Assembly (NCBI GenBank): GCA_963706795.1
Contig: OY970170.1
Coordinates: 150,001 to 182,000, forward strand
Direction: 5' to 3'
Source of the DNA: Candidatus Saccharimonadota bacterium
GTDB taxonomy: Bacteria; Patescibacteriota; Gracilibacteria; BD1-5; UBA2023
DNA: 32,000 nt
This document shows positions 1,627 to 28,728 of this stretch, piece by piece. The translations under genes and the position numbers were made by a program. Under the pieces are notes generated by a model, which saw nothing but the letters and a program-made list of their open reading frames with translations, had not been told where the DNA came from and did not search any database. Within the stretch, counting starts at the first letter, position 1. Every line of letters begins with the position of its first letter.

Positions 1627-1722
1627 TCAAATCCAAAGGAGGATGGATTACATAGTTCAAAATATTCAAAAAGATGAGATATTCAAGCATGATGAAGCCA
1701 TCTTTAAAAAAATCCCCACAGA

Positions 1723-2424: not shown

Positions 2425-2450
2425 CAAAGTTTCATGAGTGACTCCTTATT

Positions 2451-2480
2451 ATCCCTGCACATTGTGTGGGGATTTTTTTA
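2451..2480 (+). terminator. Rho-independent terminator
   Basis: The ATCCCTGCAC/GTGTGGGGAT hairpin (two G-U pairs) is followed by T7. Confidence 0.55.
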
Positions 2481-2508
2481 AGTGAAGTACTCCCTGATAT
2501 GCCTTCTC

Positions 2509-2536
2509 TTGACAACCTTCATATTCAGCATAATGT
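2509..2536 (+). promoter_or_regulatory. Candidate promoter, TTGACA-N16-TAATGT
   Basis: A consensus -35 sits at 2509-2514 and a -10-like hexamer at 2531-2536, upstream of the AGGAGG-ATG at 2568. Confidence 0.45.
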
Positions 2537-2567
2537 CTAACTCCAACACAAACAAATAGGAGGAACT

Positions 2568-3128: not shown

Positions 3129-3142
3129 GCAATCGACAAATC

Positions 3143-3679: not shown

Positions 3680-3754
3680 GAAAGAGATAAAAACTCTTTA
3701 CAATAAAAGAAAACACTGCCACAATATCCGTGATTTACTTTTTCTAATCGCCCC

Positions 3755-5371: not shown

Positions 5372-5380
5372 GTCTATAAT

Positions 5381-5425
5381 AAAAATCCCTCCTTCGCTCG
5401 TAAGAGCTTCGGAGGGATTTTTATT
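5381..5425. terminator. Bidirectional terminator between convergent genes
   Basis: The AAATCCCTCC ... GGAGGGATTT 10-bp outer stem has an inner GCTC/GAGC helix. It is flanked by an A-run on the left and a T-run on the right. Confidence 0.75.
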
Positions 5426-5435
5426 AGGTCTATTT

Positions 5436-5867
5436 TTAGATAGAGCTGCGGATCATCCATGCATTCTTTTCATGTTCGGCGAGCATTCCTGTGAGGAGAT
5501 CTGCACCAGCGGCATCATCTTGAGCCGTGAGGGTTTCGATTGCTTCACGAAGAACGATGATTGTCTCATCCGCAAATGAGAGAAGTGTAGTGAGAAGCAC
5601 GTCTCGTGATTCGGTACTAAAACTCGCATCTACTGCGTGAGAAACCGTCGGTGCAGGGAGATCAAAAACGCGGTATCGCTCTGCAATCTGATCAAGTGAA
5701 CTCCAGAGGTAGTTATATTGCCCCTCAAGCATGATATGCAGCTCATGGAAGTCTTTAGCGACAACATTCCAATGGCAGCTGTGGGTCTTGAAGTAAAGAT
5801 CATATACTGAACCAAATACGGTATCGAGGGTATGTTTAATTTTTTGAGTATCGAGTGTGTTTTTCAT
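5436..5867 (-). CDS. dps: Dps-family DNA-binding ferritin-like protein
   Basis: The 143-aa product has the Dps ferroxidase-region pattern (YFKTHSCHWNVVAKDFHELHIMLEGQY) and a four-helix-bundle-sized length. TAA stop. Confidence 0.85.
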   Translation of the reverse strand: MKNTLDTQKIKHTLDTVFGSVYDLYFKTHSCHWNVVAKDFHELHIMLEGQYNYLWSSLDQIAERYRVFDLPAPTVSHAVDASFSTESRDVLLTTLLSFADETIIVLREAIETLTAQDDAAGADLLTGMLAEHEKNAWMIRSSI

Positions 5868-5896
5868 ATAAAAATGAGTTAAGAAAACAACCCGTT

Positions 5897-5923
5897 ATTG
5901 TAACGTATTTTTTAAAAATACAA
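5897..5923 (-). promoter_or_regulatory. Candidate dps promoter, TTGTAT-N15-TACAAT on the minus strand
   Basis: On the plus strand the hexamers read ATTGTA (5897-5902) and ATACAA (5918-5923). The spacer contains the palindrome listed next. Confidence 0.35.
5905..5921. promoter_or_regulatory. 17-bp palindrome GTATTTTT-T-AAAAATAC, a candidate operator
   Basis: The two 8-bp arms are perfect and lie inside the putative dps promoter spacer, about 40-55 nt upstream of the dps ATG. Confidence 0.4.
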
Positions 5924-5969
5924 CCTTGCAAATAATGTACAGCAAGAGATCGAAACAAAACGGGCAATC

Positions 5970-5997
5970 TTGCATATTCCTCTATGCATAGTATACT
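5970..5997 (+). promoter_or_regulatory. Candidate promoter, TTGCAT-N16-TATACT
   Basis: The hexamers sit at 5970-5975 and 5992-5997, 22 nt upstream of the ATG at 6019. Confidence 0.45.
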
Positions 5998-6018
5998 TCT
6001 CACAACTAAAAATCCCCT

Positions 6019-6354
6019 ATGGCCATCGAACACAAAGAAGCGATTTCTCAGATCGAAAATCCTGCCGAAAAAGCCCGCGAGCAACTCGGCGCACTTCTTA
6101 AGATGATTGAGGGTTCTACAACCTTTGGAGAATACCACACCGCCAAAATCCACGATATCTATGGCAAATTTGAGAGCCTCAGCCCTTCCGAAAAAACAAA
6201 TATCGGATCAAAAGTAGCCGAATGAAGTCTTGGCGCTGTATCAACCGATACTGCGAGCCGAGCAAAAACTCAGCGAGAAATCGCACTGAGCGCTCAGGGA
6301 GACTATGACAAACGCAGCGCACTTCGTGGTCTGGACGAGCTCGCTTTTGCATAA
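6019..6354 (+). CDS. Small hypothetical protein (111 aa); 1 in-frame UGA
   Basis: The track ORF ends at TGA 6223-6225. The same frame continues to TAA 6352-6354, which overlaps the next ATG (TAATG). Confidence 0.55.
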
Positions 6355-6788
6355 TGGCTAACTATCAGTTCGAAATCCTCCTCAAAAATTCGGGCCTTTC
6401 GGCCGAATCAATGCACAATTTGTGGGTGATTTTTCCTGCGCTTTCAGACGAACGCAAGATCGAACTCATGGATAACTGGCCAGCACATCTCGATACATTC
6501 TTAAAAATTGAAAAGAAGGGTGTAGAAGAGCGCAAAAAGAATATCGAATCAGCACTCTCAAAAATTGAGTCCATTATCAATGATGCACTCGAACGAGATC
6601 GACAAAAAGCGCTTCAAGCAGACAAAAAACAACAGGAAACAGCTGAATGGAGCAAGGGTGCTGCTGCATTTGATAATCAATTACAGACACAAGAACAGCA
6701 AAAAAAGTTTGAAATGTTGCGCAATATCTGACGTACTATGTCCGACGACGCACCTTCTCCTCTCTTTGATCCGTTATGAAATCTGTAA
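6354..6788 (+). CDS. Small hypothetical charged helical protein (144 aa); 2 in-frame UGA
   Basis: The ATG at 6354 is coupled to the upstream stop. TGA codons occur at 6729-6731 and 6777-6779, and the frame ends at TAA 6786-6788. It overlaps the next CDS by 13 nt. Confidence 0.5.
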
Positions 6789-7018
6789 CTCCCAATAATT
6801 TTGCGCGCTTCCGGATTTTATATCCAAAACACGCTACAGAAATCTACGAGCTCGAAAAGACAATCGAGATGATTGAGGATGACGAACTCCGCTTTAAAAT
6901 CGGAGCGCGGATCAATATAGAGCTCGGTGTAGTCATCCTCAAAAACGAAGAAGTCGGCGAAGCACTCAAAAACCTCTTTCAAAAAGAGTTAAAAAGCCAA
7001 AATTCAGTTTGACTATAA
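6776..7018 (+). CDS. Small hypothetical protein (80 aa); 1 in-frame UGA
   Basis: ATG at 6776. TGA at 7010-7012 is followed by CTA and then TAA at 7016-7018. Confidence 0.5.
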
Positions 7019-7082
7019 TGAGTGTTTTTATATCATAAGCCCATCTTTTTGAGCACCCGCTCTTTTTTTTAGCTTTCTCAAC

Positions 7083-7436
7083 ATGACGAACGCAGCACTT
7101 ATCGCCGAAATTCAGAAGCCGTTTCTCAAGGCAGAAGTACCACAGGTCCGTACAGGAATGGAGGTAGAGGTTCACCAGACTATTAAGGACGGTGAAAAGA
7201 CTCGTATCCAGAAATTCCGAGGTCTCGTGATCCACACCCGTGGTAAGAGTGCACTCGAAAAGAACATCGTCGTTCGCAAGGACGTTGATGGTATCGGAGT
7301 AGAGAAGATTTTCGCGATTCACTCGCCGACGATCGTTAAGATCGACGTTCTTCGTTCCTTCAAGGTTCGTCGCAAGAACATCGCCTTTATTCGAGCCCTC
7401 AAGGGGAAGGCAGCACGCCTTCGAGAAGTTCGATAG
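7083..7436 (+). CDS. rplS: 50S ribosomal protein L19
   Basis: The 117-aa product matches the L19 pattern (VRTGMEVEVHQTIKDGEKTRIQKFRGLVI ... GIGVEKIFAIHSPTIVKIDV ... VRRKN). No UGA; TAG stop. Confidence 0.93.
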   Translation: MTNAALIAEIQKPFLKAEVPQVRTGMEVEVHQTIKDGEKTRIQKFRGLVIHTRGKSALEKNIVVRKDVDGIGVEKIFAIHSPTIVKIDVLRSFKVRRKNIAFIRALKGKAARLREVR

Positions 7437-7747: not shown

Positions 7748-9235
7748 ATGCTTTTTAGCGAAATCAAACTTCGTCCGAGTATTCAGGACGCACTTTCAAA
7801 AAGTGGATATTTAGAAGCTACGAAAATCCAAGAAGAAGTAATTACTTTTGCTCTTCAGGGTAAGAATATCGTTGGACAGTCTCAGACCGGAACCGGAAAG
7901 ACTGCCGCTTTTGTAATTCCCCTTCTTGAACTCATCGACTGCCGTCAGCGTAAGCCACAGGCAATCGTTCTTGCACCAACTCGTGAACTCGCGATCCAAA
8001 TCCGAGACGAAGTAGTAAAGCTCTCAGAAGGAATGTATCTCCGATCTACCGTTGTATATGGAGGTTCGAGCATGAAGAAACAGCGCGAAATTCTCGATAA
8101 GGGTCCACAGATCGTTATTGCTACTCCAGGTCGTCTCATTGACCTCGTTGATCGCCGATATATCGACCTCGCAGAAGTAAAATTCTTTGTTCTCGATGAA
8201 GTAGACCGCATGCTCGACATGGGATTCGTTGATGATATCGACTATCTCTGGGGTCACATGCCTGGAATTAAGCAGTCAATGACCTTCTCTGCTACGATCC
8301 CAATGGAGATGAAGAATCTCCTCGTAAAATACGTTGGTGAAGGATATGAGGCAATCAAGTCTACCCAGGAACTCACGGTTGATAAGATCGATCACTCATT
8401 TATCGAAGTAGAAACTTTCGACAAGTTCAATCTCCTTAAGAGCTATATCGAAGAACACGTTGGACAGAAGATCATCGTCTTCTCTCGAACAAAGCACGAA
8501 ACAGAACACCTCTCTCGCATGCTCCAGGAAGGAGGTGTGAAGGCAGGATGTCTCCATGGTGATATGGAACAGCGTCAGCGAACACGCGCACTTCAGGCAT
8601 TTAAGAATGATGAAGTAAATGTATTCGTTACAACGGACGTTGCAGCACGAGGACTCAATATGAACAATATTAATCTCGTACTCAATTACCACGTACCAGA
8701 AGATCCAGAGGCATACATCCATCGTATCGGTCGAACCGGTCGTGCTGGAGCTGAAGGAAAGGCAGTTATGTTCGTATCTGCTGCAGAACGTCTTCTCCTC
8801 AAGAATATTGAAAAGCGCAACAAGATCGTCATCCGACAGATCGACCGCGAAGGAAATACTCTCGAGCGTAAGGTAGAAGCTCCAAGTACTGGATTCGGAG
8901 GCGGAGGTCGCCGACGAGGAGGTGGAGGAGGCGGATACCGAGGAGGTCGTGGACGCGGAGGAAGCGGAAGTGGAGGCGGCTACGGTGGTGGTCGAAGCGG
9001 CGGAGGTGGAGGCTACAACAGTGGCGGAGCAGGAACCGGTGGATACAACCACGGTGGAGGTGACCGACCAGCTTCAACTGGAGGTGGTGGAAATGGTGGA
9101 CGTGGAGGTTACCAGGGTGGTGGACGATCAGATGCTGGCCGAAGTGCTGGAGGTGATCGCAATCCAAACTTTGGAAATGACCGCCCACACCGCGCTCCAC
9201 GCCAAGGAGGTGGAAGCGAGTACAGCGTATTCTAA
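7748..9235 (+). CDS. DEAD-box ATP-dependent RNA helicase with a C-terminal Gly/Arg/Tyr-rich (RGG-like) tail
   Basis: It has the Q motif (TKIQ), Walker A (SQTGTGKTAAF), motif II as DEVD (VLDEVDRMLDMGF), SAT, and HRIGRTGRAG. The last ~115 aa are GGGRRRGGGGGGYRGGRGRGG-type low complexity. No UGA despite the very high Gly content. Confidence 0.92.
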   Translation: MLFSEIKLRPSIQDALSKSGYLEATKIQEEVITFALQGKNIVGQSQTGTGKTAAFVIPLLELIDCRQRKPQAIVLAPTRELAIQIRDEVVKLSEGMYLRSTVVYGGSSMKKQREILDKGPQIVIATPGRLIDLVDRRYIDLAEVKFFVLDEVDRMLDMGFVDDIDYLWGHMPGIKQSMTFSATIPMEMKNLLVKYVGEGYEAIKSTQELTVDKIDHSFIEVETFDKFNLLKSYIEEHVGQKIIVFSRTKHETEHLSRMLQEGGVKAGCLHGDMEQRQRTRALQAFKNDEVNVFVTTDVAARGLNMNNINLVLNYHVPEDPEAYIHRIGRTGRAGAEGKAVMFVSAAERLLLKNIEKRNKIVIRQIDREGNTLERKVEAPSTGFGGGGRRRGGGGGGYRGGRGRGGSGSGGGYGGGRSGGGGGYNSGGAGTGGYNHGGGDRPASTGGGGNGGRGGYQGGGRSDAGRSAGGDRNPNFGNDRPHRAPRQGGGSEYSVF

Positions 9236-9236
9236 A

Positions 9237-9270
9237 AATAATCCCCTGAGCAATCAGGGGATTATTTTAT
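9237..9270 (+). terminator. Rho-independent terminator
   Basis: AATAATCCCCTGA-GCAA-TCAGGGGATTATT is a perfect 13-bp stem followed by TTTAT. Confidence 0.8.
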
Positions 9271-9295
9271 ACAAGAAGTATTAGATAATCAAAAA

Positions 9296-9324
9296 TTGCC
9301 TGAAAATTGCAATTCTGATACGAT
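9296..9324 (+). promoter_or_regulatory. Candidate promoter, TTGCCT-N17-TACGAT, ending 7 nt before the helicase ATG
   Basis: The hexamers sit at 9296-9301 and 9319-9324. No SD precedes the ATG at 9331, so the transcript may be leaderless. Confidence 0.3.
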
Positions 9325-9330
9325 CGAAGC

Positions 9331-11922
9331 ATGAGAAACACTCTCCCCTCTTGATACTCACTCAGGGAATACCAAGTCTCCGCGGTAGATACCCTTATTT
9401 CAACAATCAAAGACCTCATTCGAGAAAGACTCTCAAGGGACGATGATGCGGAATTCTATACATCCCTTCTCGTCGAAATGGCCACCGGAAGTGGTAAGAC
9501 ACTGACCGTCGGTACCGTCATTGATACCTTGATTCTCATGCGAAATAAGAATGCCCGTCTACGGGAACTTTTTTCAGGACTGCGCATAGTCTTACTCTCA
9601 AATCGAATCGGAGGTGTAAACCAGTTTCGCGACGACCTTGTACATGGACGCAAATGAGAGAAAGCTAAACCTCCGATCATTAGCTCTGCTGTTCTCGATA
9701 ATCTTAAGGTATCCACCTATCATTCGCAGGCGGATCGTGAAAACAGGAAAGCCGTAGACGAGAAAACGGACATCGAGACATTCTCCAAGCAGAACGGCCG
9801 AATCAAGGACGAACTGATCTGCAGCACGTGGCAGACAGCACTGATCAAAGATCTCGCTTCCGAGCTTCCCTACATTGACATCGTCCTTGTCGACGAGGCG
9901 CACAATGCCGCTAGCGAGACCGACTTTCATAGTGTAATCAAATCGCTCATACAGAAGGGTCGAAACGGGCACCCAGCCCTCGTGATTCCAGTGACAGCGA
10001 CACCAAGCAATCTCACGAAAGAGCTTTTCGGAGAATCGAAGTTCCAATTCGGCCTTGGGGAATACCTCGCGAGTGGATACGCGCCAAACGTAGAATATCA
10101 TCTCGTCACAAATTCAAGTGCAACTCCTGAACAGATAGCTGAACTTAGCATGCTCGTCGACCAAGCTAAGGCGATGGAGTATTCGCGGGAAAAAAAGAAA
10201 CTAGTTGTGAAGATAGCTGAAAAATTCGAATCCATGATGGCAAGTTTTCCCGATAACCGAACCCTTGTAGACGACTTGTTCCAGCGCGCTGGAGATCCTT
10301 GAAGCAAAAATCCTCTGGAAGAGACGATAATTTTCTGTAACAACATAGCTGAAGCGGACGAACTCGCCAAAATCATCTCAGGCAAGGTAGGAGCTCCAAA
10401 CTACGCCCTCGCCTACCATTCGCGAAACGACCAGAACCAAGCTATAGAGCGCCTCGCCGATCCAAGAGACGCTTGCAAGATCCTACTCGCCATCGGGAAG
10501 CTCAACGAGTCAGTCGATATTCCCACAGTCTCAAATGTCGTTTTCTGGCGGGGAACCGACCAGTCGAAGATCTATCTCCAGCAGTTCTGACGTGGATTAC
10601 GAGGAGATGGAACAGTGAGATATTATGACTATGTTGGAGGGATTCAGAATTTCGCATGGATCGGAGACATCTACGAGCAATACCAAACGCATACGAGCAC
10701 CAAAACATGAGCTAGTAGGAATGGAAATGGACGGTTAGATTCCTTTCTCGTTGCTGGAGGAAATCTCTGAACCAATGGCTACGAGATCGACCTAGCACAA
10801 ATCGGCCTAGAAATTGGACGACTGGAATCGAAATCCAAGTTCGCAAGAGAAATTACCAAGGCCAACGTGGAGGAATTCCTCTTTAATTACGCAGGAGAGG
10901 GTAAGAAAGAGGAATCATACGACATGCTCATGGAGCTTTCAGCAAGACAAGTAGAGGCATTAAAGTTCAAAGGGGGTAGCATCAAGGCGGCAGCGATTGC
11001 ATGCGAATGGAGGAAATCAAGTGGATTGAAAGCCTCGAAACTAAGCGACTTCCGAGAGTTCATAAGCTGGTTGTTTGGAAAAAATTATAGACCATCAGAT
11101 AAGACTCTTGAAAGATCTGAGATTGAAGATTTTTTCTTCAATTATGCTGGGAAAAAAAATAAAAAGGGGGCCTATGATAAATTGACGCAATTAACGTGTA
11201 AAGACATCCGACTGCTTGAGATTAAAGGAAATGGTATTAGGTCAATCATCAAGTTAGTTGGATGGACGAACCCAGAAGGCCTACATGTAAGAGATACTGT
11301 TGGGTTTCGAGCTTTTATTGATTGGTTGTTTGGCGAGGAATACAGAACTGAGATTGTCAGCATAAGCAAGTGAACAATCGAAGATTTTTTCTTTAGCTAT
11401 TGAGGAAAAGAGGGAAGGGAAAAATCATACGCTCAACTCATGATCCTAACTCAAAATGAGATTAGATCACTTGAAATTCAAGGAAAGAAGATCACTCTAA
11501 TTGTAAAGCTAAGTGGATGGGAGAATCCCCATCAGCTAACCTGCCGGTGAGTAGAGGAATTTCGAGCTTTTATTAATTGGTTGTTCGATAAGGAATACGT
11601 AGTCAATAAGAACAAGAAAGAAGAGATAAGCAAATCTGATATCGAGGCTTTCTTCTTTACTTATGCTGGAAATAACAAGAAAAATAGGTCATACGAGATA
11701 TTAAAATCTTTAAAAAGAGAAGATATAGCCTTACTCAAAATTCAAGACAATAGAATTCCGGCAATAGCACGATCAACCTGATGGCAAAATCCAAAAAAAT
11801 TGAATGTAAGAAATCCTATGGGTTTTAGAGCGTTCATCAGTTGGCTCTTCGACAGAGAAACACTGTCGAACGAAAAGAGCAAAGTCAACAAGAAAGTTCC
11901 GAGACTGAAAAAAGAGGCCTAA
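9331..11922 (+). CDS. SF2 (DEAH, ResIII-like) helicase with four C-terminal tandem repeats; 10 in-frame UGA
   Basis: A single frame is open from ATG 9331 to TAA 11920-11922 when TGA is read as sense. The TGAs are at 9352, 9655, 10300, 10588, 10708, 10768, 11371, 11401, 11548 and 11779. Helicase motifs are LREYQ, MATGSGKT, LVDEAHN, VTATP and QQF[UGA]RGLR. It joins track ORFs 9982..10302, 10867..11373 and 11581..11781. Confidence 0.85.
10588..10590 (+). other. Diagnostic UGA=Gly codon in helicase motif VI
   Basis: The sequence reads YLQQF-TGA-RGLRGDG. The codon occupies the conserved Gly of Q-x-x-G-R-x-x-R. Confidence 0.8.
10867..11919 (+). repeat. Four tandem, degenerate ~85-88-aa coding repeats (unit starts 10867, 11122, 11377, 11641)
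   Basis: Every unit carries the motifs [IV]E-x-F-[FL]-F-x-Y-[AG]-G, S/A-Y, GW-x-NP and FR-[AE]-F-I-x-WLF. Unit spacing is 255, 255 and 264 nt. Confidence 0.8.
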
Positions 11923-11945: not shown

Positions 11946-14900
11946 TTATTTCGCGAGGACTTCCACGCTGATAGCTCTTGCAGATTTACCGCGGAGTTCG
12001 TTGGTGGTTTGAATTTCGACGCTGTGACTACCAACCTCAAGATCAGCGCCAACTGGCACAGAGAACGAGGTATCATTCGAACCAAGGATCTTGAAGAGCT
12101 GGCCATCGATATAGATATTGACCGCAGTGAGTGCGACAGGATCTATAATATGGAATTTAAAATTGAAGTACTGACCCTGATAGATCGAGATTTTTGGATC
12201 GGAGTCCTTAGGATTATCGATCATGATCGCCGATCCTTGAACTTGACCACCAAAGGTTACATGCGAAGATGACTCTCCTGAGTATCCATATTGGTCAATT
12301 GCGGTCACAGTAATGACATGTTCTCATGCAAATGCTGTATCAAAATTGATATCCGAAATTGTCATTGAACCCGTTCGAAGACTCTCAACAGCAACTTCTT
12401 TAAAGACTTCTCCATCGCGATCGAGGCGGATTTTGACGATTGGATTGAGCGCCTGGAATGAAACTTCTATCGAACCACGACCGAGCGGACGCTTGCTGCC
12501 ATCTGCAAGACTGAGCGAGACTGAGACTGGTGAATCTGCTGCACTTGGACGTACGCAGACCTGATCAGAGTAACTAGTAATGAGTGTTGAGCCCGATGCA
12601 AAGTAGGCGTTGCCTGCTTCACTCGTTGCCCATCTACGGGTAGATTTGAGCCAAGAAGGATCATATGATTCGATGATTGGATCGATATCCATGAGGTATC
12701 CCTTGCGCACTGCAGCAGCTGGAGTTGCATCGGTCACCTTTCCATTACAGAGTGAGTCAACCTCGACCTGTTTAGCGCTATTTTCATATTTAGTGGGCTT
12801 CACGGCAAAGATCGATGTGATCTTGTATTCGTCGGGCGTATTATCAGATGCGAGCTTCCCAGAGATAGAAGAAATCGTCGCTGAATAGACGCTATCAGGC
12901 TTTTTAAATTGCATGACCGGAAGGCCTTTATGGGCATATTCCATAAAATCATGCCAGATAGGAGCGGCACAGTTAAGTCCGTCACATGTTCCCTTTGTTT
13001 CGGTTCCATCTACGTTTCCAGCCCAAACGACCGTTGTGTATTGTGGTGTATATCCTGCAGTCCAGAGATCACGAGGAAGGATTTTTTTCTCCGTTCCAGT
13101 ACTGACGTCTTTATTCGATGTACCTGTTTTGGCAGCGACGGGACGATCTTTGAGGGTAAGTACATTATTCCAGAACGAGCTTGGTCGACTCGATGCATCT
13201 GAGAGGATTGTCGAGAGCAGATATGAGGCAGCATCTGAGAAGATATATTTGCCATTCGAATCTACGTATTCATCAATGACATTGCCTTTTTTGTCGACGA
13301 TTTTGAGGATGGGAGTGGGTTCTTTTTTCCAGCCGCCATTCGCAAATACGCTATAGGCTTCCATGAGTTCGATGGGCTTGAGCTCACCAGTTCCGATGGC
13401 GAGTGGCATACCGTAGGTTCCATCATCTCTGAGCGAGAGTGCTCCGAGGCTTCGTGCATGTTTGACGACTGCAGCTTCACCGCCGGCGACCGTAAACATC
13501 TTGATTGCTGGAATATTACGCGAGTAATCGAGAGCAGTTTTTACCTTCATCTTCCCCATAAACTTTCGGTCGTAGTTGTCAGGATTCCAATTTCCAAAAG
13601 AGGTATCGACGTCAAAGATAGGTGTATCTGGGGAGATTGCTTCCTTGCTCATAGCGAGGGAATAGACGATCGGTTTAAATGATGATCCAGGCTGTCTGAG
13701 GGCTGTAACCATATTGACCTTCCCCTGCTCCGTATCACCGAAAAAATCCGGTCCACCGACCATAGAGATGATTTGTCCCGTTTTGTTATCTACACTGACA
13801 AGTGCGGCACTGGTTGCTCAATATTTGTCCTTGTTGATCTTTACTTGTTTTTGGACGAGCTCTTCGGCTTTGTCTTCGAGCTTTGGATCGATCGTTGTAT
13901 AGATCTGAAGTCCGCCCTGATCAAAAAAATCATCACCATATTTTTTAGTGAGATAGTCCTGCACATACATCACAAAATGTGGATATTTGATGCTCTGGGC
14001 ATTACGAACGAATTGGAACTCGAGTCCATCAATCACCACCGATTTAAATTCCTCGGGAGTAATTTTGCCATCTTCGAGCATACGCGAAGCCACGAAGTCT
14101 TTGCGGCCGGTGTTGTATTCGAGTACGTATCCCGTGAGCTTCTCACCAGGAGAAACTGTAGATGCGGTAGCACCTGTATTTGTTGTCGGTTTTACAGAAG
14201 GCTTTGTTCCTGGCTTGACAGGCGCAACTACAGGAGCTGCAGGAGCCTGAGCATCCTTTGGAGGCGTGAGCTGGATATCATTGAGGAGCTGAAGGATATC
14301 TTTATATGCGAGCCTCGAACATCCACTCGAATCAATCGAATACGAAGCTTTGAGCTTGCCTGCATCGAGCCCGCAGACCTTTGCATCAGATTCGTCGATA
14401 CGATCAATCTTGAGACCGCCTACAAACTTTTTAAAGCTATCAACGAGCGGACGGAAGTCACGCATACGCTCAGGACTGGAGAGGGTGATCTTTTCATCTG
14501 TCTTTCCATCCTTAAATACGTAGAGATATCCCATGAGGCGATCTCGATGTGAATATGGTGAAAAATATGTTGGCCCTTTTGGAAGCGACGCGAGGATGGT
14601 TGCGCCGAGAACTTTTACGTCCTTTGCAGATTTACCAAAATAGGTCTTTGCAGCTTCTTCAATACCGGAGGCGTTATTACCATATGAAATCTTGTTGAGA
14701 TAGAGCTCGAGGATCTTCTCTTTAGAATATTTGGTATTGAGTCGATACGAGAGATAGATTTCTTTGGCTTTACGATCAAACGAGCGCTCATTACTAAGAA
14801 AGGTATTCTTAATGAGCTGCTGCGAGATGGTAGAAGTTCCTTGGATTTTGTCAGTTTTACCAGTGATATAATTCCATCCTGAACGCACGAGACCCTTAAA

Positions 14901-15278
14901 GTCGACACCACCATTCTCAAAGAAGGTCTTATCCTCGGTCGACACGATAGCATCGAGAATGGTTTGAGACATATCTTTGATCTCGACGTAAGTACGCTTC
15001 CCTTCTTGTCCAGAAAAAAGTGAATAGAGCTCGTTCCCATTGCGGTCGCGGATCACCGAACTCTCAGGCAAAGTGATATCCTCAATAGATGTAATTGATG
15101 GAAGCGTGCGAAGATAGACGAGATAGAGCACTCCAATACTCGCAATTCCCAAGAGGAAGAGCGATACACCGATATAGAGTGTGAGAATTCCCCACGAAAC
15201 TTTACGTTTGCGGAGGCGGTCGAAAAATTCCTTGGGATTGACCAAGATATTTTTTGGTTGGGATTTTTTGAATGTCAT
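11946..15278 (-). CDS. Class A penicillin-binding protein (GT51 glycosyltransferase plus transpeptidase) with C-terminal Ig-like extension; 2 in-frame UGA
   Basis: Track ORFs 13818..15278, 12324..13763 and 11946..12308 share one frame and are joined by TGA at 13818-13820 and 12324-12326. It has an N-terminal TM, GT51 motifs (EDKTFFENGGVD, GTSTISQQ), and transpeptidase SSFK, SRN and KTGT motifs. A Pro/Ala/Lys-rich insert separates the two domains, and a beta-rich tail of ~250 aa follows. TAA stop. Confidence 0.9.
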
Positions 15279-15280
15279 AG

Positions 15281-16738
15281 TTATTTGAGAAGTGTTGTCG
15301 AATCTTGACCGAGTATAATCTCGATCCCAGGTCCAGCAAGTTTGCTATAGGTGAGCGTCGCCTCTTCTTCGGCTGGCGCATAGATAAACATCGAGAGTGC
15401 AGTAAGCGTCGACGAATCCGGACTTACACCCATCTTGCCAATCGGGTCCCAAACATGGAGGATCTTACTTTTTGGATATGGATCCTTGGTCGTTGCGATG
15501 GAATTTTTTTCGGGAATATTGAAACCGAATCGTTTGAGCCTGAGCGCAACGCGAGTCGCATTCCCTGAGAATTTTGTTGCGTTTACCACGGTGATTTCGT
15601 CCTTATCTATATACATCTGTGGCAGATCAAAGATCATATGTGCAAATCGCGAAATATCCGTATATGTCGAGATATTCGCTGGAGTTGCACCATCTGGTAA
15701 GAGCACCGAAGATCCTCCAAAAAGCTCTCTATTTGGCGTATAGAGGAAACTTCCGGCGTTACAGAGTGAAGCCGACTGAAAACACATGTCATTGAGATTG
15801 AATGACAAAATGTGGTCCGATGGCAGATCCTTTGCAAAAAGCGCAAGTGAGACAAGATCATTAAATGCGAGATCGGTCTTGATATGCCCAGTAATTGCGT
15901 AATAGAGAGACTGGAGCTTAGATGGACTGGTAAGTGCGTTAAAGCTGAGGAGTTTTTCTTTGATAGCCTTAAGTACAAGTTGCTGACGATGAGATCGATC
16001 AAAGTCGCTGGTCGAATGACGTGAGCGAACATATTTGAGCGCCGTCCCCCCATCAAAGGTCTGAAGCCCCTTGCTGACTCTGAGAGTTGTATATCCCCAA
16101 TTATCATCTGGATATTCACGATCGAGGAGATCTTCAGGTACATTGACCTCTATGCCACCCAGGATATCGACAAATTTTACGAACCCATCAAAGTCGATAT
16201 TAAAATAGGCGTCAACACGTTCGCCGGTGATTTCGGTCACTTTAGAAGCGAGTTTTTTCATCGCCTCATCAGTCGTACTATTACGAAGTCCGCGCTGATA
16301 GGTCTCATTGATCTTGCCGCGTCACTTAGTTGGGAACTCCACATAGAGGTCACGTGGGATTGAGAGCATACTGATACTATTGGTCTTGCGGTTAACAGAT
16401 GCAAGAATAATGGTATCAGTGAGATCACTACCATCATGACCTGCGCCACCCACACCCGTAAGGAGAATATTGAGTTTTTGAGGTTCATTACTACTGTGCG
16501 CCAAAAATGGGACGTTATTGGTAATGAAGCTTGGAATCTCAAATCCGATATGAAATCCCGAAAATCGTGACAGAATCCCAATTCATACGAGCCCTATAAA
16601 AATAGTGGCGAGTATTCCAAAGAACACAGAAACGAAGAAATTCTTCCTTTTGGAAGCGAAATAAGATTCACGAATATTCGTGAATCCCTGAGTAGCCTTG
16701 ATAGGCTCCGTCTTGAGACGTTTTTTTGTAAAAGTCAT
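15281..16738 (-). CDS. LytR-CpsA-Psr (LCP) family cell-wall polymer ligase with a LytR_C-like C-terminus; 2 in-frame UGA
   Basis: Track ORFs 16583..16783, 16322..16504 and 15281..16261 share one frame, joined by TGA at 16583-16585 and 16322-16324. An N-terminal TM is followed by NILLTGVGGAGHDGSDLTDTIILASV ... SIPRDLYV ... [UGA]RGKINETY ... FDGFVKFVDILGGIEV. The start is taken as ATG 16738. Its TAA stop lies 2 nt before the PBP1A ATG. Confidence 0.85.
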
Positions 16739-16815
16739 AATGAAAAACGTTCGTGAGTATAGAAAAAAAACACAAAAACGCAACCTTCGGATCGAGAAAC
16801 TTTCTACAGGTTTTT

Positions 16816-20656: not shown

Positions 20657-20686
20657 AAAAAAGAGCAGCTTGCGCTGCTCTTTTTC
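20657..20686. terminator. Bidirectional terminator between the lipoprotein (+) and the SLH gene (-)
   Basis: AAAAAAGAGCAGC-TTGC-GCTGCTCTTTTT. Confidence 0.8.
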
Positions 20687-20699
20687 CTTGTCTTATAAT

Positions 20700-21644
20700 C
20701 TAGAGTTTAAATGCCTTCACGACGACCTTTGCAATCTCAGCACGTGTTATACTGTCAGACGGTCGGAATATGAGTCTTCCAGTAGTTGTGATTTGTCCGT
20801 CAAATATACCTGCTGCCTTTACGGCTTCAACATACATAACGAGACTTGATGAGATGCTCACGTCCGCAAATACACCAGTTGGCGTATGAAGGGTAAGTCC
20901 AAGTGCACCCGCAAGTATCTTTGCTACTTCTGCTCGGCTAATTGGATCATTTGGTCGAAATCTCGTCGCCTGGGAGATGATACCATGTCCAAGTGCGTAA
21001 CTCGCATATGGTGCATACCATTCAGTTTTTGAGACGTCAGTGAATGGATTTGCATTGATAGTTTCGAGCTTCCATCCTGCGGTATTCCCGACTATTTTAA
21101 GGAATTCTGCACGAGTAAGCGTGTCATTTGGACGGAAGAAATCAGTGTTATTAATAATCTTACGAACCGCGAGATTATTAATATAGTCGCTGGCCCAATT
21201 AGAACCTGTGTCCTTAAAAAGAAGCTGTGAAGTACTGAGAACAACTGGAGGAATAGTGACTACCGCTGGCGTAGTAGTCGTAGGTCCATTCGTTGGAGTA
21301 ATCACTGTACCAGAGCTGGTTGTTGTGACTCCAGTAGAAGTTCCTGTCGAGCTAATAAAAATACTCGATCAACCTCCCCCGCCACCCCCTCCCCCGCCTC
21401 CACCACCTCAGGTAGAGACAGCGGCGCAGGCCTGACCAGAGAGTTGGAATCCTGAATTACATGTAATCGCACACGTTGACGCATTTACTGTACCATTTGA
21501 TACAGATGCTGGATTACATGCGAGCGTAAAACCAAGTCCTGTTGATACATCGGATGTTCCGACTGTGCCAACTGACTCACTCGCAAAAGCTGATGTACCC
21601 GAGAGCATCACACACGCAAGAACCAGAAAAAGAATTCGTTTCAT
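20700..21644 (-). CDS. Secreted protein with three C-terminal S-layer homology (SLH) domains and a poly-Gly linker; 2 in-frame UGA
   Basis: Track ORFs 21408..21644 and 20700..21305 share one frame. A signal peptide (MKRILFLVLACVMLSGTSAFA) is followed by a Cys motif (CAITCNSGFQLSGQAC), a 14-Gly run, a T/S/P linker, and three SLH-like units (FKDTGSNWASDYINNL ... TRAEFLKIV; FTDVSKTEWYAPYASYAL ... SRAEVAKIL; FADVSISSSLVMYVEAV ... TRAEIAKVV). TAG stop. Confidence 0.85.
21369..21410 (-). repeat. Poly-glycine coding tract: TGA, 12 GGN codons, TGA (14 Gly)
   Basis: The minus strand reads TGA GGT GGT GGA GGC GGG GGA GGG GGT GGC GGG GGA GGT TGA. All four GGN codons plus UGA occur in one homopolymeric run. 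Confidence 0.85.
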
Positions 21645-21663
21645 AAGATATCTAAAGTAAGGG

Positions 21664-21689
21664 AAAAAGCCGGATTAATCCGGCTTTTT
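21664..21689 (-). terminator. Hairpin terminator between the giant surface gene and the SLH gene
   Basis: AAAAAGCCGGA-TTAA-TCCGGCTTTTT is a symmetric hairpin. A U-run follows it on the minus-strand transcript. Confidence 0.7.
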
Positions 21690-21693
21690 TAAA

Positions 21694-24600
21694 TTATTGT
21701 GTCTGAATTCCGTAACTTGTGGAGTAGGCTCCAGCAGCTCCGGTAGGGATCTTATAGAAAAGATCAATCGTAAATTGTCGTCCACCAGTATTTACATCCG
21801 CATCGAATGCACTAATGCTGACATTCGTTCCATACGCATTCGTCACATCAACGGCTGATCCTGATGCTGTTGCGTAATCCGCTACACCATCCTGAGATAC
21901 TACCATCTTTGTGTTTCCTGCGATAGCAAGCGTACCGACAGTATTTGACCAATCAGCGAGCTTGAGCGATGCCCCAGTCTCTGTGAGTGAGTTGGCAGTG
22001 ACATTAAATCTAAAGTGGTATCCATTGGTGAAGTCACCCGCAACTACTGGAGTTCCATGAGGAATTCGAGCAATCGAATTTACCACGATTCCTGTGTTTG
22101 CTGCAGCCGTCTTAAAGGCCATTGGTACTGAATTTACCGTCTGTCCGTTTGCAGTAAATCGAACCTGATAGTAATACGTCGTATTTGCCGCGAGTCCAGC
22201 AACTGCTGCCGGAGACGCCGCGAGCGTTACCCATGAACCTGAGTATGCAAGGGTTGAGATGCGATACTGACTCGTTGTAGGTAAAACATCGGTTGTATAA
22301 CTGATCACTGCACCCGTGTTTGTAACACTACCAATAGAGAGTCCAGTAATATCTGGAGCTGATGCAGACTGTGTTGTGAAGTAAATCTCTCGTGATTCAG
22401 TTACGAGATTATTTGTTGCATCCTTCACTGCATTTGGCTGAATTGTGATGCGGTATGTAGTGTTGTACTCGAGAGTTCCATATCCAACTTGGATATTATT
22501 CCCTGATACGACAGCAGTACCAACCTTCACGCTTGAAGAGTCAGAAACCTTCTGGATGAGTACCTTTGTCTCATCGGCCATAACGAGAGCTTCGTTATAG
22601 AGAATAGTTCCAGTTCCTGCTGTTACTGAGACACTCGTCGCAGCATTCGAAGGAGCAGAAGAAACAAATACGGGAGCTGAAGCATCAGCCGGAGTATCGG
22701 CATTTACTTGGTACGAAATCGTGAGATTTGCTGTCGTGCTCGTACTCGAAGTGACAATGATGTTATATGTATGTACTCCAATACTCGTCGCTCCAGAGAG
22801 TGTATCAATAGCTACCGTTGCAGCAGGCGCCACTGGAGTTCCATTTACTGTCATGCTCGCAGCATTCGTCGTATCGATCTGAAGTCCAGAACCAAATCGT
22901 GCTGCTGCTGCAGTCGCAGAGTATGCTGAGAGAATCGCAGCACCATTGAGGACGACGGTTGGAGTAATTGTTCCAGAGCCAACAACTACTACACCATTGG
23001 CGAGCGTCCAGTTTCCTGCATTATCCTGAACCTTTGCAATGAAGTTATGTGTTCCTGCAGCGAGATTTGCATCCGTATAGGTCACAGTAAGCGAAGTTGC
23101 TGTTGGGCGAGCTACTGAGGTCTTCAGATCACTCTTTACATCATTTCCGTCGAGTGTGAATTCGATAACGTTTGAAAGCGCAGTCGAATTAAACAGCATA
23201 TTGTCCGCGAATGTGAATACTACCGGAGCTACTGCCGCTACTGTCTGAGCTCCTGCTGGAGTGATACTCATCGTAGTTGGTGCAGTTGTATCGGCAATAG
23301 TTGTAAACTCGTGAGCTGTCTTATTTGTGCTGTCATAGGCTACCGCAAAGGCATTGCCAACGACATCCGTCACGCTCGTATTTACTGCGAAGTAATACTG
23401 AGTTCCTGGCGTGAGATTGTCAGCCGGAGTGAGCGTAACTGTTTGATTGCTGTTTGAGAAAGCACATGTAGCAGCTATCACAGAGTCGTCACTATATTTC
23501 TTGAGCTGAACGTTATTACATCCAACACTGACGCTTCCAGTAGCAATAGGCTCGCTAAAGGTGATAGCTGGAGCAGTTGTTACTGCAACACTTGTCGCAT
23601 TGTCGAGTGGACTGAGTGTAGAAACTGTTGGCGCAGTACTGTCGATCGTAAAGGCAAGATCCGAAATATCATTTGCGGTATTCCCTGCCTGATCAGTAAT
23701 CGTTACTCGCACCTTTGCAGTATTTACATTACTCATTGGAATAGTCCATGCATAGGTTCCATCATTTGCTTCGTTGTTGATAGTTACCGAATCCGTGAAA
23801 TCTCCGAGTGCAGAATAGTCGATGGTCATTGGAGTCGCTCCAAGGTGAGCATCAGTTCCACCTGTCCATGTAATGTTATATCCCGCACCTCCCTTGAGTT
23901 TCTCTCCACCATTTGGAGTGAGAACTGTAGGAGCTGTTGGAGCAGTATTATCTACTGTAACTGTAGCTGTCGAGGCAGTAGAGATATTGCCTGCAGCATC
24001 AATAACAAAGAGATTGTATACACCCTCAGTTGCTGGAGCGAGAATCGTCGTAGCAACTCCATTTGTTGCCTTCGTCATGGTAGCACCTGCAACGAATGTC
24101 GTTGTTCCGCTTGCTGCGAGCCAGACATCATTTGATGCCGTTCCAGAAGTCACAATCGTTACTGAAGCTCCGCCCTGTTTAATAACAGAAGCGGCAAGTA
24201 CTGTATCCTGATTTGTTGGTGCAGTATTATCAGTATTGAGCTGACCTACGAGGTGATATCCAATATTCCCTGCGTTGTCTGCTGCAGTGACACAGAGATA
24301 ATCAGTGTGATCACCCGCAATCGTAAAGTTTGTACCACCTGTAAATGCTGTACCGTAGGTATCAGTCACGTCACAAGTATTGTCAGCACTAAATCCATAT
24401 GCAACCGTCGATGCCTTCACACCAGAGATAGCATCTGAGAGGGTAACATTGATAGTATCAGTCTTCACTGGACCAGCTGCCGTAGCATCTACGTCCGTAA
24501 ATCCTGGTGCTGTATTGTCGATCGAGAATGTATTATTTACTGGCGTGGCAGTGACTACATTTCCTGCTGCGTCCTCTCCAGTTGAGAGCGTAACAGTTGC

Positions 24601-26811
24601 TGTAGCGATATCACCAGCAGGTACGTTGAGATCGTATGTATAATGCGTTGTGTCCACCTTTGTCATGTTTGTAGCCGCAAGAACTGCATTATTGACAGCA
24701 ACCTGCACAATTGGCGCATCCTCAATTGGTTCATTGAAGTTTGCAATAATTCGAAGTGTATCCGCATCTTTTACACCAATGGTTGTACCAGTACTTGTTC
24801 CACCATCTTTTGAATAATAGAGAGTTGCTACTGGTGAAGTGCTATCAACTGTGAGCGTCGCAGTTGAAGCACTTGAGATATTACCCGCAGCATCAAGTAC
24901 GAAGAGCTTGTATGCACCTTCAGTTGCTGGAGCAAGAATAGCGGTCGAAGTTCCATCCGTTGCCTTTGTCATGGTAGCACCCGCAACAAATGTCGTGGTT
25001 CCGCTTGGGGCAAACCATACATTATTTGTTACATCACCCGAGCTGACAATCGTTACAGAAGCTCCTGACTGTTTTGAAACCGAAGCCGCAAAGACAGTAT
25101 TTTGGTTGGTTGGAGCAGTATTATCCGTATTAAGCTGACCAACGAGTTGGTACGCGATATTCCCTGCATTGTCGACAGCCTTCGCACAGAGATAGTCCGT
25201 GTGATCTCCCGCAACTGTGAAGTTCACTCCTCCTGTAAATGCTGTACCGTACGTATCAGTGATATCACAGGTATTATCTGCGCTAAATCCATATGCCGCA
25301 GTACTTGCATTAACACCTGATGTAACATCAGAGAGTGCTAGATTGATCGTATCTGATTTTACTGGACCCGCATCCGTGCCGCTCGTCACTCCAATAACTG
25401 GAGCAACTTGGTCAACCATGAGGGCGCCAGCAGTATTATTAGCGTCCATAACATTACCTGCAAGATCGGTTGTACCAGAGACTTTGATTGCCCCTGAACC
25501 ATCCGTAAATCCGGTAACATCCACGGTTCCCACCCAAGTATTAGCTGAGTTGTCATATCCGTTATTGGTATGAGTACCGTCAACGAGAGCAGTTACTGCA
25601 TGGTCCGCACCATCATTAAATTGAATAGTCGGAGCCACCATTTTATTGATGCCAGAACCTGCCTCAGTAAATGTAACAGTCACCGTAACATTTCCCGCCT
25701 TTGCAGGACTTGGACTTGCCGTTGCTGTAGCAACTACTGGCTTAGTCGTATCCACTACAAAAGTCGTAAGAGTGAGAGGTGAAGACTCATTTCCTGCTTC
25801 ATCCAAGAATGTTGCAGTAAAATTTGCGACACTTCCATCTGGAATAGTGGTAAGAGTGACTGTATTATTTCCCATCGCAGGACTATTGACTGTCTGGAAG
25901 AGAATACCTCCACTATAGACCTTGATCGACTGTCCGCTTGCTTCGGCAACATTGATCACAACGTCTGGAGTATTGTCTGTAGTAGGTGTTGTTACTGGTG
26001 TTGTCTCAGTCGGAGTAGCTGGTGGAGTATTATCAACTGTGAGCCACCCTGGCACAATGCTCGAGACATTACCTGCAGGATCGACAGCAACGATGTCATA
26101 GACACCATCATTGAGACTTGCAGCGAGTGTTACAGTATACGGAGTTGCAGCAGCAGCTCCTGATTTACCAAGGAATGCATTATTTGCAGTAACCGCCGCA
26201 TCGATATTTGCCTGAGAAGCCGCGGCAACGCCGTTTTTCACAAGGTAGATATTTGCGCCTTCGTTCGCCTGAACGGTAGAAGTCGATGTCGATCCACTCT
26301 TGAGGCGCTGAGCCGTATTTGTCGGAGCAGACGCAACAGGAACGGTATTGTCGATAATTACATCGCTGTATGCGGTAGTATTTACGATCGTACCTCCTTT
26401 ATTGAGTCGGAACTGATAATCTGTGTCATCCGTAGTCTGACCAGCTGTTGAGTCAAAGTTTACAGAAGTTGAGCTTGGGAGGGCTGAGGTCGCAATGGTT
26501 ACCCAGCTGCTTCCACCATCGTGGGATGCCTGGACATCAAAAACTGCGGGATCTGTGGTTGTACAATCAATGCCATTGAAGGCCCAAGCTACAGATACCG
26601 TAATTCCTCTTTTTGCACTGCCTGACGCAGGGCTTGTAATCGTCGCATCTCACGCATTACATGTTCCATCGCTCATTGCCGCATTTGCAGTGGAAACCAA
26701 TCCTGGCAACCCAACAAATACCTGAGACGAAATAATTGTAATAACCGAGAGAATAGCCAGAAACTTGCGTTCCAAGCTGGATTCCCCCCTCCTTCTCGTA
26801 ATCGATTTCAT
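21694..26811 (-). CDS. Giant secreted cell-surface protein (1705 aa) built from Ig-like, SbsA_Ig/Big_5-like and FN3 domains; 1 in-frame UGA
   Basis: The frame of track ORF 21694..26241 stays open upstream through TGA 26650-26652 to ATG 26811. An alternative start is TTG 26775, after an internal AGGAGG. The signal peptide reads FLAILSVITIISSQVFVGLPGLVSTANA. Domain junctions of the form [VI]D-x-T-x-P recur (VDNTPP, VDTTKP, VDQVAP, VDSTSP, IDNTAP, VDNTAP, IDSTAP) with D-x-AGN motifs. There are two SbsA_Ig-like units (about 23317-23616 and 22372-22662) and an FN3-like unit (about 22108-22359). No SLH, LPXTG or TM anchor is visible. TAA stop. Confidence 0.85.
23938..24477 (-). repeat. Intragenic duplication, copy B (~180 aa)
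   Basis: AGPVKTDTINVTLSDAISGV ... VTVDNTAP. The similarity to copy A is also visible at nucleotide level. Confidence 0.8.
24835..25371 (-). repeat. Intragenic duplication, copy A (~179 aa)
   Basis: AGPVKSDTINLALSDVTSGV ... LTVDSTSP. By eye, about four-fifths of residues are identical to copy B, which lies 894 nt downstream in the gene. Confidence 0.8.
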
Positions 26812-26954
26812 AGGTGAAAATAAAAAAGTACTACTTTTACTTACTTCACCTCCTTAGCTCCGTGGCGGACAAAGGTACGATTATGTTCTGGAAGTCCGAT
26901 CACGGGAGATACGAAGGTTCCTTCTAACTTCAGAGGATAGATGAAAAAAAACGA

Positions 26955-27003: not shown

Positions 27004-27038
27004 TCAAAAAAGCAGGCACTCTCTCGAGTGCCTGCTTT
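27004..27038 (-). terminator. rplA terminator
   Basis: AAAGCAGGCACTC-TCTC-GAGTGCCTGCTTT is a perfect 13-bp stem, followed by TTTTTGA on the minus strand. Confidence 0.8.
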
Positions 27039-27855: not shown

Positions 27856-28725
27856 CTACTTAAGATACTTATCAAAATAGGTCGGCTTAGACTCTGGATA
27901 GACGCGAATACGGTTCGTATCGAGGTGATCAGTACTCTCTGCCCAAGACTTCCCAAACGAAGTCGAGAATCCGAGTGAATAACCACATTCCTTCTCGATT
28001 TTTGTGGAGAATCCGGACATTCGCCCTGCTGGAAAAATGAAGGTAGAAACAGGTTTTTGAGTGATACTTTCGAGTGTTTTTTTGGAATCACACATTTCTT
28101 CGTGCTCGATTTTTTCGCTGACGATATCGAGATCGACATGCGAAATGCTGTGCGATGCTATCGTAAAGAGCGGATCTTGTGAGAGGACGCGGACTTCGTT
28201 TTCGGTCACAAATCAGGCGGTTGCAAGTTTGGATGTGATCACTCCAAACGTAAATGGAATCTGATATTTGCGCGCAATCGGAGCAAGCGCGGTATAGCTA
28301 TCAATCCAGCCATCATCCGAGATAAATACAAAGATTTCTTTATTTGGGAAGCAGTGATTAGTCGTGTCTTTAATGAGTTCATCGGTGCTTATCACCGCAA
28401 CTTTACCAGCATCTACAAGTGCACGAACATGCTCCATATGCGATTCAAAGACCTTGGGTGCGACGGACAATTGTACGATCACCTTTGCGTCCTGAGGAAT
28501 CGGATCGCGGATATAGTGGTACATAAATACCGAGACATTCGCGCCTGAAAAACATGCGGAAATCATTGGTGGATTATGTAAATCAGATGTCGAATTTTGA
28601 GTACTCTTTTGAAAATCTGGAATCTGCAGCTTCGAAAAATCAAAATGTGGAAATATATACAAAGCGAAGGCTCAAAAAAACACTCCCAATAGGAATATCG
28701 AGAGTGTTTTGATCCAGTTGTGCAT
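27856..28725 (-). CDS. Polysaccharide deacetylase (NodB homology domain) with an N-terminal TM anchor; 2 in-frame UGA
   Basis: Track ORFs 28213..28662 and 27856..28209 share one frame, joined by TGA 28213-28215. The frame extends upstream through TGA 28672-28674 to ATG 28725 (MHNWIKTLSIFLLGVFF[UGA]AFALYIF). NodB-like motifs are VFISDDGWIDSY, ASHSISHVDL and FIFPAGR. TAG stop. The ATG lies 3 nt after the pheS TAA. Confidence 0.75.
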
Positions 28726-28728
28726 ATT

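Follow-up and report, generated by a model that had tools for sequence, protein, structure and literature searches.

How does a bacterium keep a very large secreted protein on its surface when that protein has no anchor of its own? The question is raised by a gene pair in a Candidatus Saccharimonadota bacterium (GTDB lineage Bacteria; Patescibacteriota; Gracilibacteria; BD1-5; UBA2023). We analysed positions 150,001 to 182,000 of the forward strand of contig OY970170.1 (assembly GCA_963706795.1). This stretch of 32,000 nucleotides (nt) is called the window here, and coordinates refer to it unless a locus handle precedes them. The first gene encodes a 1705-amino acid (aa) secreted protein of immunoglobulin (Ig)-like modules, which we call the cargo. 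The second encodes a 314-aa secreted protein with SLH domains, which we call the adaptor. We argue that the locus is a two-part surface-display system in which the adaptor anchors the cargo. This is the likely reading of the evidence, and it is well short of certain. An initial annotation of the DNA had already proposed a cargo and a wall-anchored partner, and this core idea is strongly supported by synteny.

The cargo and the adaptor

Both genes are on the minus strand, as are all features within them. Their coordinates and lengths in the initial annotation were exact when the DNA was translated with genetic code table 25. The cargo gene is at 21694..26811. Its product begins with a Sec-type signal peptide of about 44 aa (aa 1-44, 26680..26811) that ends in ...STANA, followed by A, and the sole hydrophobic window of the protein is within it, at aa 16-39. 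A sequence scan found no LPXTG in the cargo and no transmembrane (TM)-like hydrophobic stretch outside the signal peptide. Sortase anchoring was considered and rejected, since the protein has neither LPXTG nor a hydrophobic C-terminal segment and ends in ...SYGIQTQ. The Pfam and hydrophobicity scans agree with the first description of this open reading frame as having a signal peptide and no SLH, sortase or TM anchor. There are 12 D-x-A-G-N module ends at a spacing of about 100 aa and one D-x-T-N-N variant. Pfam recognizes Big_5 twice, and its Ig-like and FN3-like matches are weak. The estimate of at least 10 beta-sandwich modules is reasonable given these counts.

The mature cargo is about 168 kDa, has a pI of 4.1, is rich in Thr, Ala, Val and Ser and contains 0.5% Cys. 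Its secretion, size, pI, richness in Thr, Ala, Val and Ser, low Cys content and own terminator hairpin are consistent with an S-layer protein. Part of the array has been duplicated: aa 449-671 (24799..25467) and aa 747-969 (23905..24573) are 70% identical in a pairwise alignment, and a repeat search finds the corresponding DNA repeat at 24827-25126 and 23933-24232 (76%).

The end of the cargo is the part that relatives have in common. A tblastn comparison defines a conserved C-terminal block at aa 1282-1705 (21697..22968), made of an Ig-like module, Big_5, an FN3-like module and a C-terminal domain (CTD), and this block is common to relatives whose N-terminal arrays differ. Identity to the cargo of locus L003 is 67% over aa 1282-1705 only. 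It is 47% to L005 and 39% to L007, each over about aa 1350-1705. The L003 cargo has about 2465 aa, of which only the last 424 correspond to the window cargo; its N-terminal array has different repeats. From this comparison the C-terminal part of the cargo is conserved and the N-terminal part is variable. The variable part is presumably the exposed one.

The adaptor gene is at 20700..21644. Pfam and the coordinates bear out its first description as a 314-aa protein with three SLH domains that starts 49 nt downstream of the cargo. At the mature N-terminus is a conserved motif (aa 22-42, SESVGTVGTSDVSTGLGFTLA, 21519..21581), defined by an alignment of 60 adaptors, which we propose as the plug for the CTD. 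It scores 15.1 bits against the motif hidden Markov model (HMM) at aa 22-44, and Gly26 of SESVGTVGTSDVSTGLGFTLA is the sole invariant column of the adaptor alignment. A Cys module follows (aa 43-73, C-x14-C-x3-C-x2-GF-x-L-x-G-x2-C, 21426..21518) and is shared with a subset of adaptors. Ahead of the SLH domains is a poly-Gly and Thr/Ser/Pro-rich linker, whose poly-Gly run (aa 79-92, 21369..21410) is read from 12 GGN codons between two TGA codons. The three SLH domains occupy aa about 141-314 (20703..21224). Pfam SLH (PF00395) matches in 3 stretches with E = 4.1e-25 and 87.9 bits against a cut-off of 20.8, and each domain has [TS]RAE (TRAE at aa 177, SRAE at aa 236, TRAE at aa 300). In SpaA and Sap the arginine of this motif contacts the pyruvylated N-acetylmannosamine of the wall polymer (PMC6081394). 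No pyruvyl transferase is among the 12 window proteins scanned with Pfam, the other window proteins having been judged by translation only.

A family of terminal domains

The CTD is a 135-aa terminal beta-sandwich (21697..22101) and the proposed socket for the adaptor. The initial annotation could not place it, and it has no match in Pfam, NCBIfam or PDB sequences. The PDB sequence search gave chance matches only (rotavirus VP6, E about 0.3). A word-indexed search found 4 close homologues with the single CTD and 12 with a profile. The family became visible in an exhaustive profile search over 1.84 billion representatives of clusters at 50% identity. The HMM searches that had been suggested as a check led to no library model and instead to a family that comprises at least 195 protein clusters (E <= 1e-3); for 49 of them E <= 1e-10. 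The window CTD matches the family profile with E = 3.9e-48.

The placement of the domain is regular. It is at the extreme C-terminus of large Ig-array proteins in 83 matches and directly behind the signal peptide in 39. The 21 matches that seemed internal were listed individually, and all have a domain E > 1 except P0024 and P0077. Judged from these matches, the CTD always sits at a protein terminus. A type IX secretion sorting domain was considered and rejected on the grounds that there is no Pfam match (Por_Secre_tail, CHU_C) and that 39 matches have the domain at the N-terminus. The named sources of CTD proteins are Gracilibacteria, candidate division SR1, Parcubacteria and Minisyncoccia; taxonomy is available for few named records, and most loci are unbinned metagenome contigs.

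Structure prediction of the CTD alone had also been suggested. AlphaFold2 with a 45-sequence alignment gives a confident beta-sandwich (pLDDT 94.7, pTM 0.88); a model from a 5-sequence alignment (pLDDT 45) was discarded. Among the strands of the CTD (aa 1571-1705), KFADW and GGSYSTSYGI are conserved. Foldseek finds nothing in the PDB at E <= 1e-3 for this model. The best matches are weak (E 4e-3 to 5e-2, TM score 0.3-0.46) and go to chaperone-usher pilins and, interspersed with these, to beta-domains of glycosidases and to carbohydrate-binding modules. We treat these neighbours as a lead, not as evidence of homology.

Conservation of the pair

If the two genes belong together they should be found together in other genomes. 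Among close relatives, four independent Gracilibacteria contigs carry a cargo CTD and, directly behind it, an SLH adaptor that is 44-50% identical (L001, L002, which is on the same contig as L004, L003 and L008). The order of giant CTD protein and then SLH partner is kept in every Gracilibacteria relative with downstream sequence. It must be noted that the SLH match of L005 is marginal: its adaptor keeps the N-terminal motif and the Cys module, and its SLH-like repeats are very divergent (20.5 bits against the cut-off of 20.8). The genes flanking the pair in the four contigs are unrelated to those of the window. The proposed synteny check in other Gracilibacteria thus comes out in favour of the pair.

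The same holds much further away. Metagenomes were scanned with the pattern [GA]G[SA]YSTSYG, taken from an 8-sequence alignment; of the 129 relatives that this yielded, 80 loci were retained. Nearly all of these use the standard code. Among the C-terminal-type loci with at least 300 nt of downstream sequence, 62 of 62 have a co-oriented gene directly downstream, at a distance of 2-99 nt (median 24). In all 62 this gene encodes a signal peptide and then at once a motif that reads roughly SE-x-TG-x-[LIV]-x-TG-[VIL]-x-TG-[VIL]-x-G-x-V. N-terminal-type loci also have a partner, with a slightly longer variant of the motif. The genes on either side differ completely from locus to locus; only the pair and its gene order are constant. 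The window pair itself has a terminal CTD, a 49-nt gap, a signal peptide, the motif, a poly-Gly linker and an SLH anchor. The initial annotation regarded a failure of the two genes to co-occur in related genomes as fatal to its idea. They co-occur in both close and distant relatives within the candidate phyla radiation (CPR).

The motif is specific to the pair. A motif profile was run on the 4903 open reading frames (579,610 aa) that the window and all the loci contain, with a threshold of 9 bits. Because the adaptors had themselves served to build this model, what counts is only the lack of matches elsewhere. It found only C-terminal-type adaptors, N-terminal-type partners, the second-pair adaptor of L016 and three internal copies (L014, L024, L031). 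Under a strict automatic rule a motif-bearing reading frame comes directly after the CTD gene in 76 of 83 testable loci, and by eye the number is about 82. Six of the 7 misses have a visible motif that is weaker or mis-parsed. The remaining one (L066) is different, with a partner that has another, Cys-rich N-terminus with poly-Gly and a dockerin.

The relation can also be approached from the other side. Starting from an adaptor profile, the upstream gene ends in a CTD in 3 of 3 testable loci (L088, L090, L091; E about 1e-45). L089, where the upstream gene is cut by the contig end, and P0172, whose contigs have no DNA on file, were left out. This profile search was swamped by generic CHB_HEX proteins, and the motif is in only 15 of its 105 matches.

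Which part of the adaptor would the CTD recognize? The Cys module was tried as a universal binding element and rejected, since most adaptors do not have it. It is restricted to the adaptors of the window, L001-L003, L005, L008, L051 and L055. Among the adaptors sampled here, the family-wide conserved element of the partner is the motif of about 20 aa at the mature N-terminus. The suggestion that the CTD is a new interaction module is strongly supported by synteny. It is a new, conserved, terminal module, and the conserved element of its partner is the N-terminal motif rather than the Cys module that had been put forward. Elsewhere in the window, a 538-aa secreted protein with no Pfam match (3707-5371, plus strand) has a Cys motif, CEYTCQNGYAWNGNAC, that resembles the adaptor Cys module, and the C-terminal part of this protein, CADGYHLPTKADV..., is reminiscent of paralogous domains of the Fibrobacter type.

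One motif, many anchors

A Pfam scan of 53 non-redundant adaptors shows what lies behind the motif. A CHB_HEX_C_1-type beta-domain follows it in 42 of the 53. The C-terminus is PG_binding_1 in 19 and Dockerin_1 in 17, and SLH is found in one, that of the window. Other adaptors have a TM helix at the end (L029, L069) or unassigned C-terminal domains. Most carry a poly-Gly linker. The smallest consist of a signal peptide, the motif, a linker and an anchor only (L043 with 133 aa, L025 with 148 aa, L029 with 129 aa). The gene after a dockerin adaptor encodes a protein of about 250 aa that combines a signal peptide, a cohesin and a C-terminal TM helix, and this cohesin passes the Pfam cut-off in 5 of 10 tested. 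In L047 it is the third gene that has three SLH domains. The anchor type differs even between loci with close CTDs, at 80% identity (L067 and L014) and at 68% (L069 and L040). Read in this way, the constant part of the second gene is the motif, and the part that changes would be the way of holding the envelope.

Several variant arrangements were seen. Two adaptor C-terminal domains without a Pfam or NCBIfam match are recurrent (…WDIVRAIAYSGAKR and …GEAYYVNPxDxKMxYxG…; from L055, L063, L067 and L076, and from L036 and L079), and presumably are additional envelope-binding modules. In three loci with PG-binding adaptors the third gene encodes a protein of more than 1500 aa (L014:2570-7321, L024:7712-12343, L031:3561-8222) in which the adaptor motif and a CHB_HEX domain lie internally, not far from the C-terminus. 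Cargo and adaptor seem to be fused in these proteins. L016 has two complete cargo-adaptor pairs in tandem (2-1049, 2161-7041). L044 has two N-terminal-type CTD genes (5845-7386, 8626-9540), of which the first is followed by a partner with a weak motif and the second runs off the locus end. From L016 and L044, one genome can display several cargos.

Alternative explanations

In favour of a docking of the CTD on the motif, the identities of the two co-vary (Mantel r = 0.58, reached by 0 of 2000 permutations), a correlation that is confounded by shared ancestry. Some observations count against it. In the three large proteins of L014, L024 and L031 the motif is internal, and so does not depend on a free N-terminus. 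The CTD is modelled with confidence as a sandwich that is complete by itself, which gives no hint of a missing strand. The likeness to pilins is weak, with a best E of 4e-3, and the list of Foldseek neighbours also holds glycosidase beta-domains and carbohydrate-binding modules.

The last point leads to the alternative that survives best, although we think it improbable. One can imagine that the CTD is itself an anchor that binds carbohydrate or the wall, like a carbohydrate-binding module, and that the downstream protein is independent and merely co-transcribed. The Foldseek neighbours in question are GH123 N-terminal beta-domains and carbohydrate-binding modules of mannanases and esterases (probability 0.9-0.97, TM score about 0.45), and a terminal placement is common among wall-binding modules. 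However, the CTD matches no known anchor or carbohydrate-binding family by sequence. A match to a self-sufficient anchor was another result that the initial annotation named as telling against its proposal. This scenario also leaves unexplained why about 76-82 of 83 loci have a partner with the same motif and a changing type of anchor, and why some adaptors consist of motif, linker and anchor only.

Slightly less probable again is that the downstream protein is a helper in secretion, folding or assembly, such as a nucleator or chaperone, and not a stable tether. The tight, operon-like spacing (median gap 24 nt) would suit a helper, and the hairpin of the Gracilibacteria may lower adaptor levels, which fits a sub-stoichiometric factor. 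However, most adaptors end in a recognizable envelope anchor reached through a long flexible linker, which is the architecture of a tether, and the Pfam and NCBIfam scans found no enzymatic or chaperone domain in them.

That the cargo and adaptor are unrelated surface proteins, adjacent only through shared regulation of envelope genes, is very improbable: there are envelope genes nearby (PBP1A and an LCP ligase 4-10 kb beyond the adaptor, a polysaccharide deacetylase 1 kb upstream of the cargo), but the pair and its order persist while the flanks change completely, and the CTD and the motif are each specific to the pair.

A possible mechanism

We return to the two-part display system. Both proteins would be exported through their Sec signal peptides, and the CTD would then bind the N-terminal motif of the adaptor non-covalently. 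A possible binding mode is beta-strand addition as in donor-strand systems; both the pilins among the Foldseek neighbours and the place of the motif at the N-terminus hint at it. The SLH trimer would hold the adaptor on a wall polymer linked to peptidoglycan. The Gly/Thr/Ser/Pro linker would span the wall, and the cargo on display would be an S-layer-like coat or a fibrillar adhesin. That the wall carries attached polymers is plausible, since the window encodes PBP1A (11946-15344, minus strand), an LCP-family (LytR_cpsA_psr) ligase next to it (15281-16813, minus strand) and the polysaccharide deacetylase (27856-28728). PBP1A is extended at its C-terminus by about 300 aa of Ig-like appearance.

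A more general proposal goes further. The CTD and the motif would be a previously unrecognized docking pair with a role like that of cohesin and dockerin, used generally by Patescibacteria (CPR) to hang large, fast-evolving surface proteins on whatever anchor a lineage has, be it SLH, peptidoglycan binding, dockerin-cohesin-TM or a TM helix. We regard this broader claim as evenly balanced between right and wrong. Its cargos might be S-layers or host adhesins, and binding might be by beta-strand addition.

Comparison with known systems

One of the two closest parallels in function is the cellulosome of Clostridium thermocellum, where CipA, which has a type II dockerin, is held by SdbA, OlpB or Orf2p, which have a type II cohesin and three SLH domains. 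There too a large, secreted, modular protein without an anchor is tethered through a dedicated C-terminal docking module, and the tether is a small separate protein fixed to the wall by three SLH domains. The window pair is different in that the proposed socket is a 135-aa beta-sandwich and the proposed plug a motif of about 20 aa, the two genes lie side by side, and the pairing occurs in CPR bacteria. Cohesin-dockerin binding was rejected for the window pair, as Pfam finds neither domain in the two proteins. In its relatives a real dockerin and cohesin are used one step further in, with the dockerin on the adaptor and the cohesin on the third, TM protein.

The other parallel, the S-layer of the Sulfolobales, is a two-component system encoded by adjacent genes, SlaA and SlaB, and SlaB is anchored in the archaeal membrane by a TM helix. 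It resembles our pair in its adjacent genes and in having a large anchorless outer protein and a smaller stalk that fixes it to the envelope. We detected no sequence relationship between the window pair and SlaA/SlaB. The anchor is swappable here (SLH, peptidoglycan-binding, dockerin or TM), and a lattice of the cargo is hypothetical.

Donor-strand systems include the chaperone-usher pilins FimA, CfaB and PapA, and the TasA fibres of Bacillus with the wall-associated TapA. They combine a beta-sandwich with an N-terminal extension of a partner, the conserved element of the adaptor is likewise at the mature N-terminus, and pilins are the top Foldseek matches of the CTD. However, these matches are weak (E >= 4e-3, TM score 0.3-0.45), and in the model the CTD needs no donated strand to be complete. 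Gly and Thr are abundant in the motif and hydrophobic residues come at about every fourth position, unlike the alternating pattern of a donor strand. No chaperone or usher gene is present in the window.

The SLH part is most like that of the Bacillota S-layer proteins Sap/EA1 and SpaA, where the [TS]RAE arginine likewise occurs in three SLH domains in tandem, except that the SLH and the lattice or display parts are one polypeptide there and two genes here (PMC6081394).

We found no description of this gene pair in the literature. The text of one preprint that predicts new Patescibacteria S-layer proteins does not mention an adaptor. The proposed docking pair and its wide distribution in the CPR are the new part and apparently undescribed; adaptor-mediated anchoring of surface proteins is known.

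Genetic code and gene models

The gene models depend on how UGA is read. It is a sense codon here, as table-25 reading frames join table-11 fragments throughout the window (for example 11946-15344 and 21694-26853). Under the standard code the region breaks up into fragments. Three observations point to Gly rather than Trp. In a CTD homologue from JGI, the code-4 translation puts W at exactly those positions that are G in all relatives. The poly-Gly run of the adaptor (21369-21410) has its 12 GGN codons flanked by one TGA at each end, and the corresponding linker in standard-code relatives is plain poly-Gly. The closest named relative is a Candidatus Gracilibacteria metagenome-assembled genome. 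The window contains neither tRNA nor Rfam genes, so a suppressor tRNA cannot be used as evidence for the code. The cargo gene has a single in-frame TGA (codon 54, 26650..26652), which we read as Gly.

A strong Shine-Dalgarno-like sequence, AAGGAGGTGA, is about 33-42 nt 5' of the cargo ATG (26812-26860, minus strand). It is too distant to serve the cargo, and no in-frame start codon lies between the two.

Hairpins and expression

The gap between cargo and adaptor is 49 nt (21645-21693). As the initial annotation noted, there is a hairpin between the genes, which it suggested could set the stoichiometry of the two proteins. It is terminator-like, right behind the cargo stop (21664..21689, minus strand), with an 11-bp stem, a TTAA loop, a T5 tail and -15.2 kcal/mol. 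Only 19 nt remain between it and the adaptor ATG, which leaves no room for a promoter. L001, L002, L003 and L008 have hairpins of unrelated sequence at the equivalent position, and L005 is unclear. The position is conserved within the Gracilibacteria clade only. In standard-code relatives the gap is mostly <= 30 nt, too short for a hairpin, so a role in attenuation or in stabilizing the 3' end of the cargo mRNA is reasonable for the Gracilibacteria alone. In this clade the hairpin probably terminates or stabilizes most cargo transcripts, and the adaptor would be made from read-through at a lower level.

Two further hairpins delimit the unit. A bidirectional terminator-like hairpin closes it 3' of the adaptor (20658..20685). 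Another terminator-like hairpin, behind rplA (27009..27038, minus strand), separates the cargo from the upstream gene and is followed by a leader of about 195 nt before the cargo gene.

Other observations in the window

Two other reading frames are worth recording. The one at 9289-11922 (plus strand) encodes a ResIII/Helicase_C helicase and, behind it, a tandem array of four repeats, each about 85 aa long (…FFFNYAG…FRAFI[SDN]WLF…). At 1-1647 (minus strand) a protein of more than 530 aa is cut by the edge of the window; it is largely coiled-coil, and its sole match, to DUF1664, is weak.

Implications

CPR bacteria account for a large part of bacterial diversity, and their way of life is to be attached to other cells. 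To our knowledge, the means by which their surface proteins are held on the envelope are almost unknown. The gene pair described here probably fastens the surface coat or the adhesins of these bacteria to the cell. If that is true, a terminal CTD and a motif-bearing adaptor would be a genomic signature that flags the displayed surface proteins and the anchoring chemistry of each genome. It would also provide a new, small docking pair of a 135-aa domain and a peptide of about 20 aa that is directly testable and could serve as a protein-display tool. For the uncultured Gracilibacteria and SR1, the cargos would be candidate host-attachment proteins.

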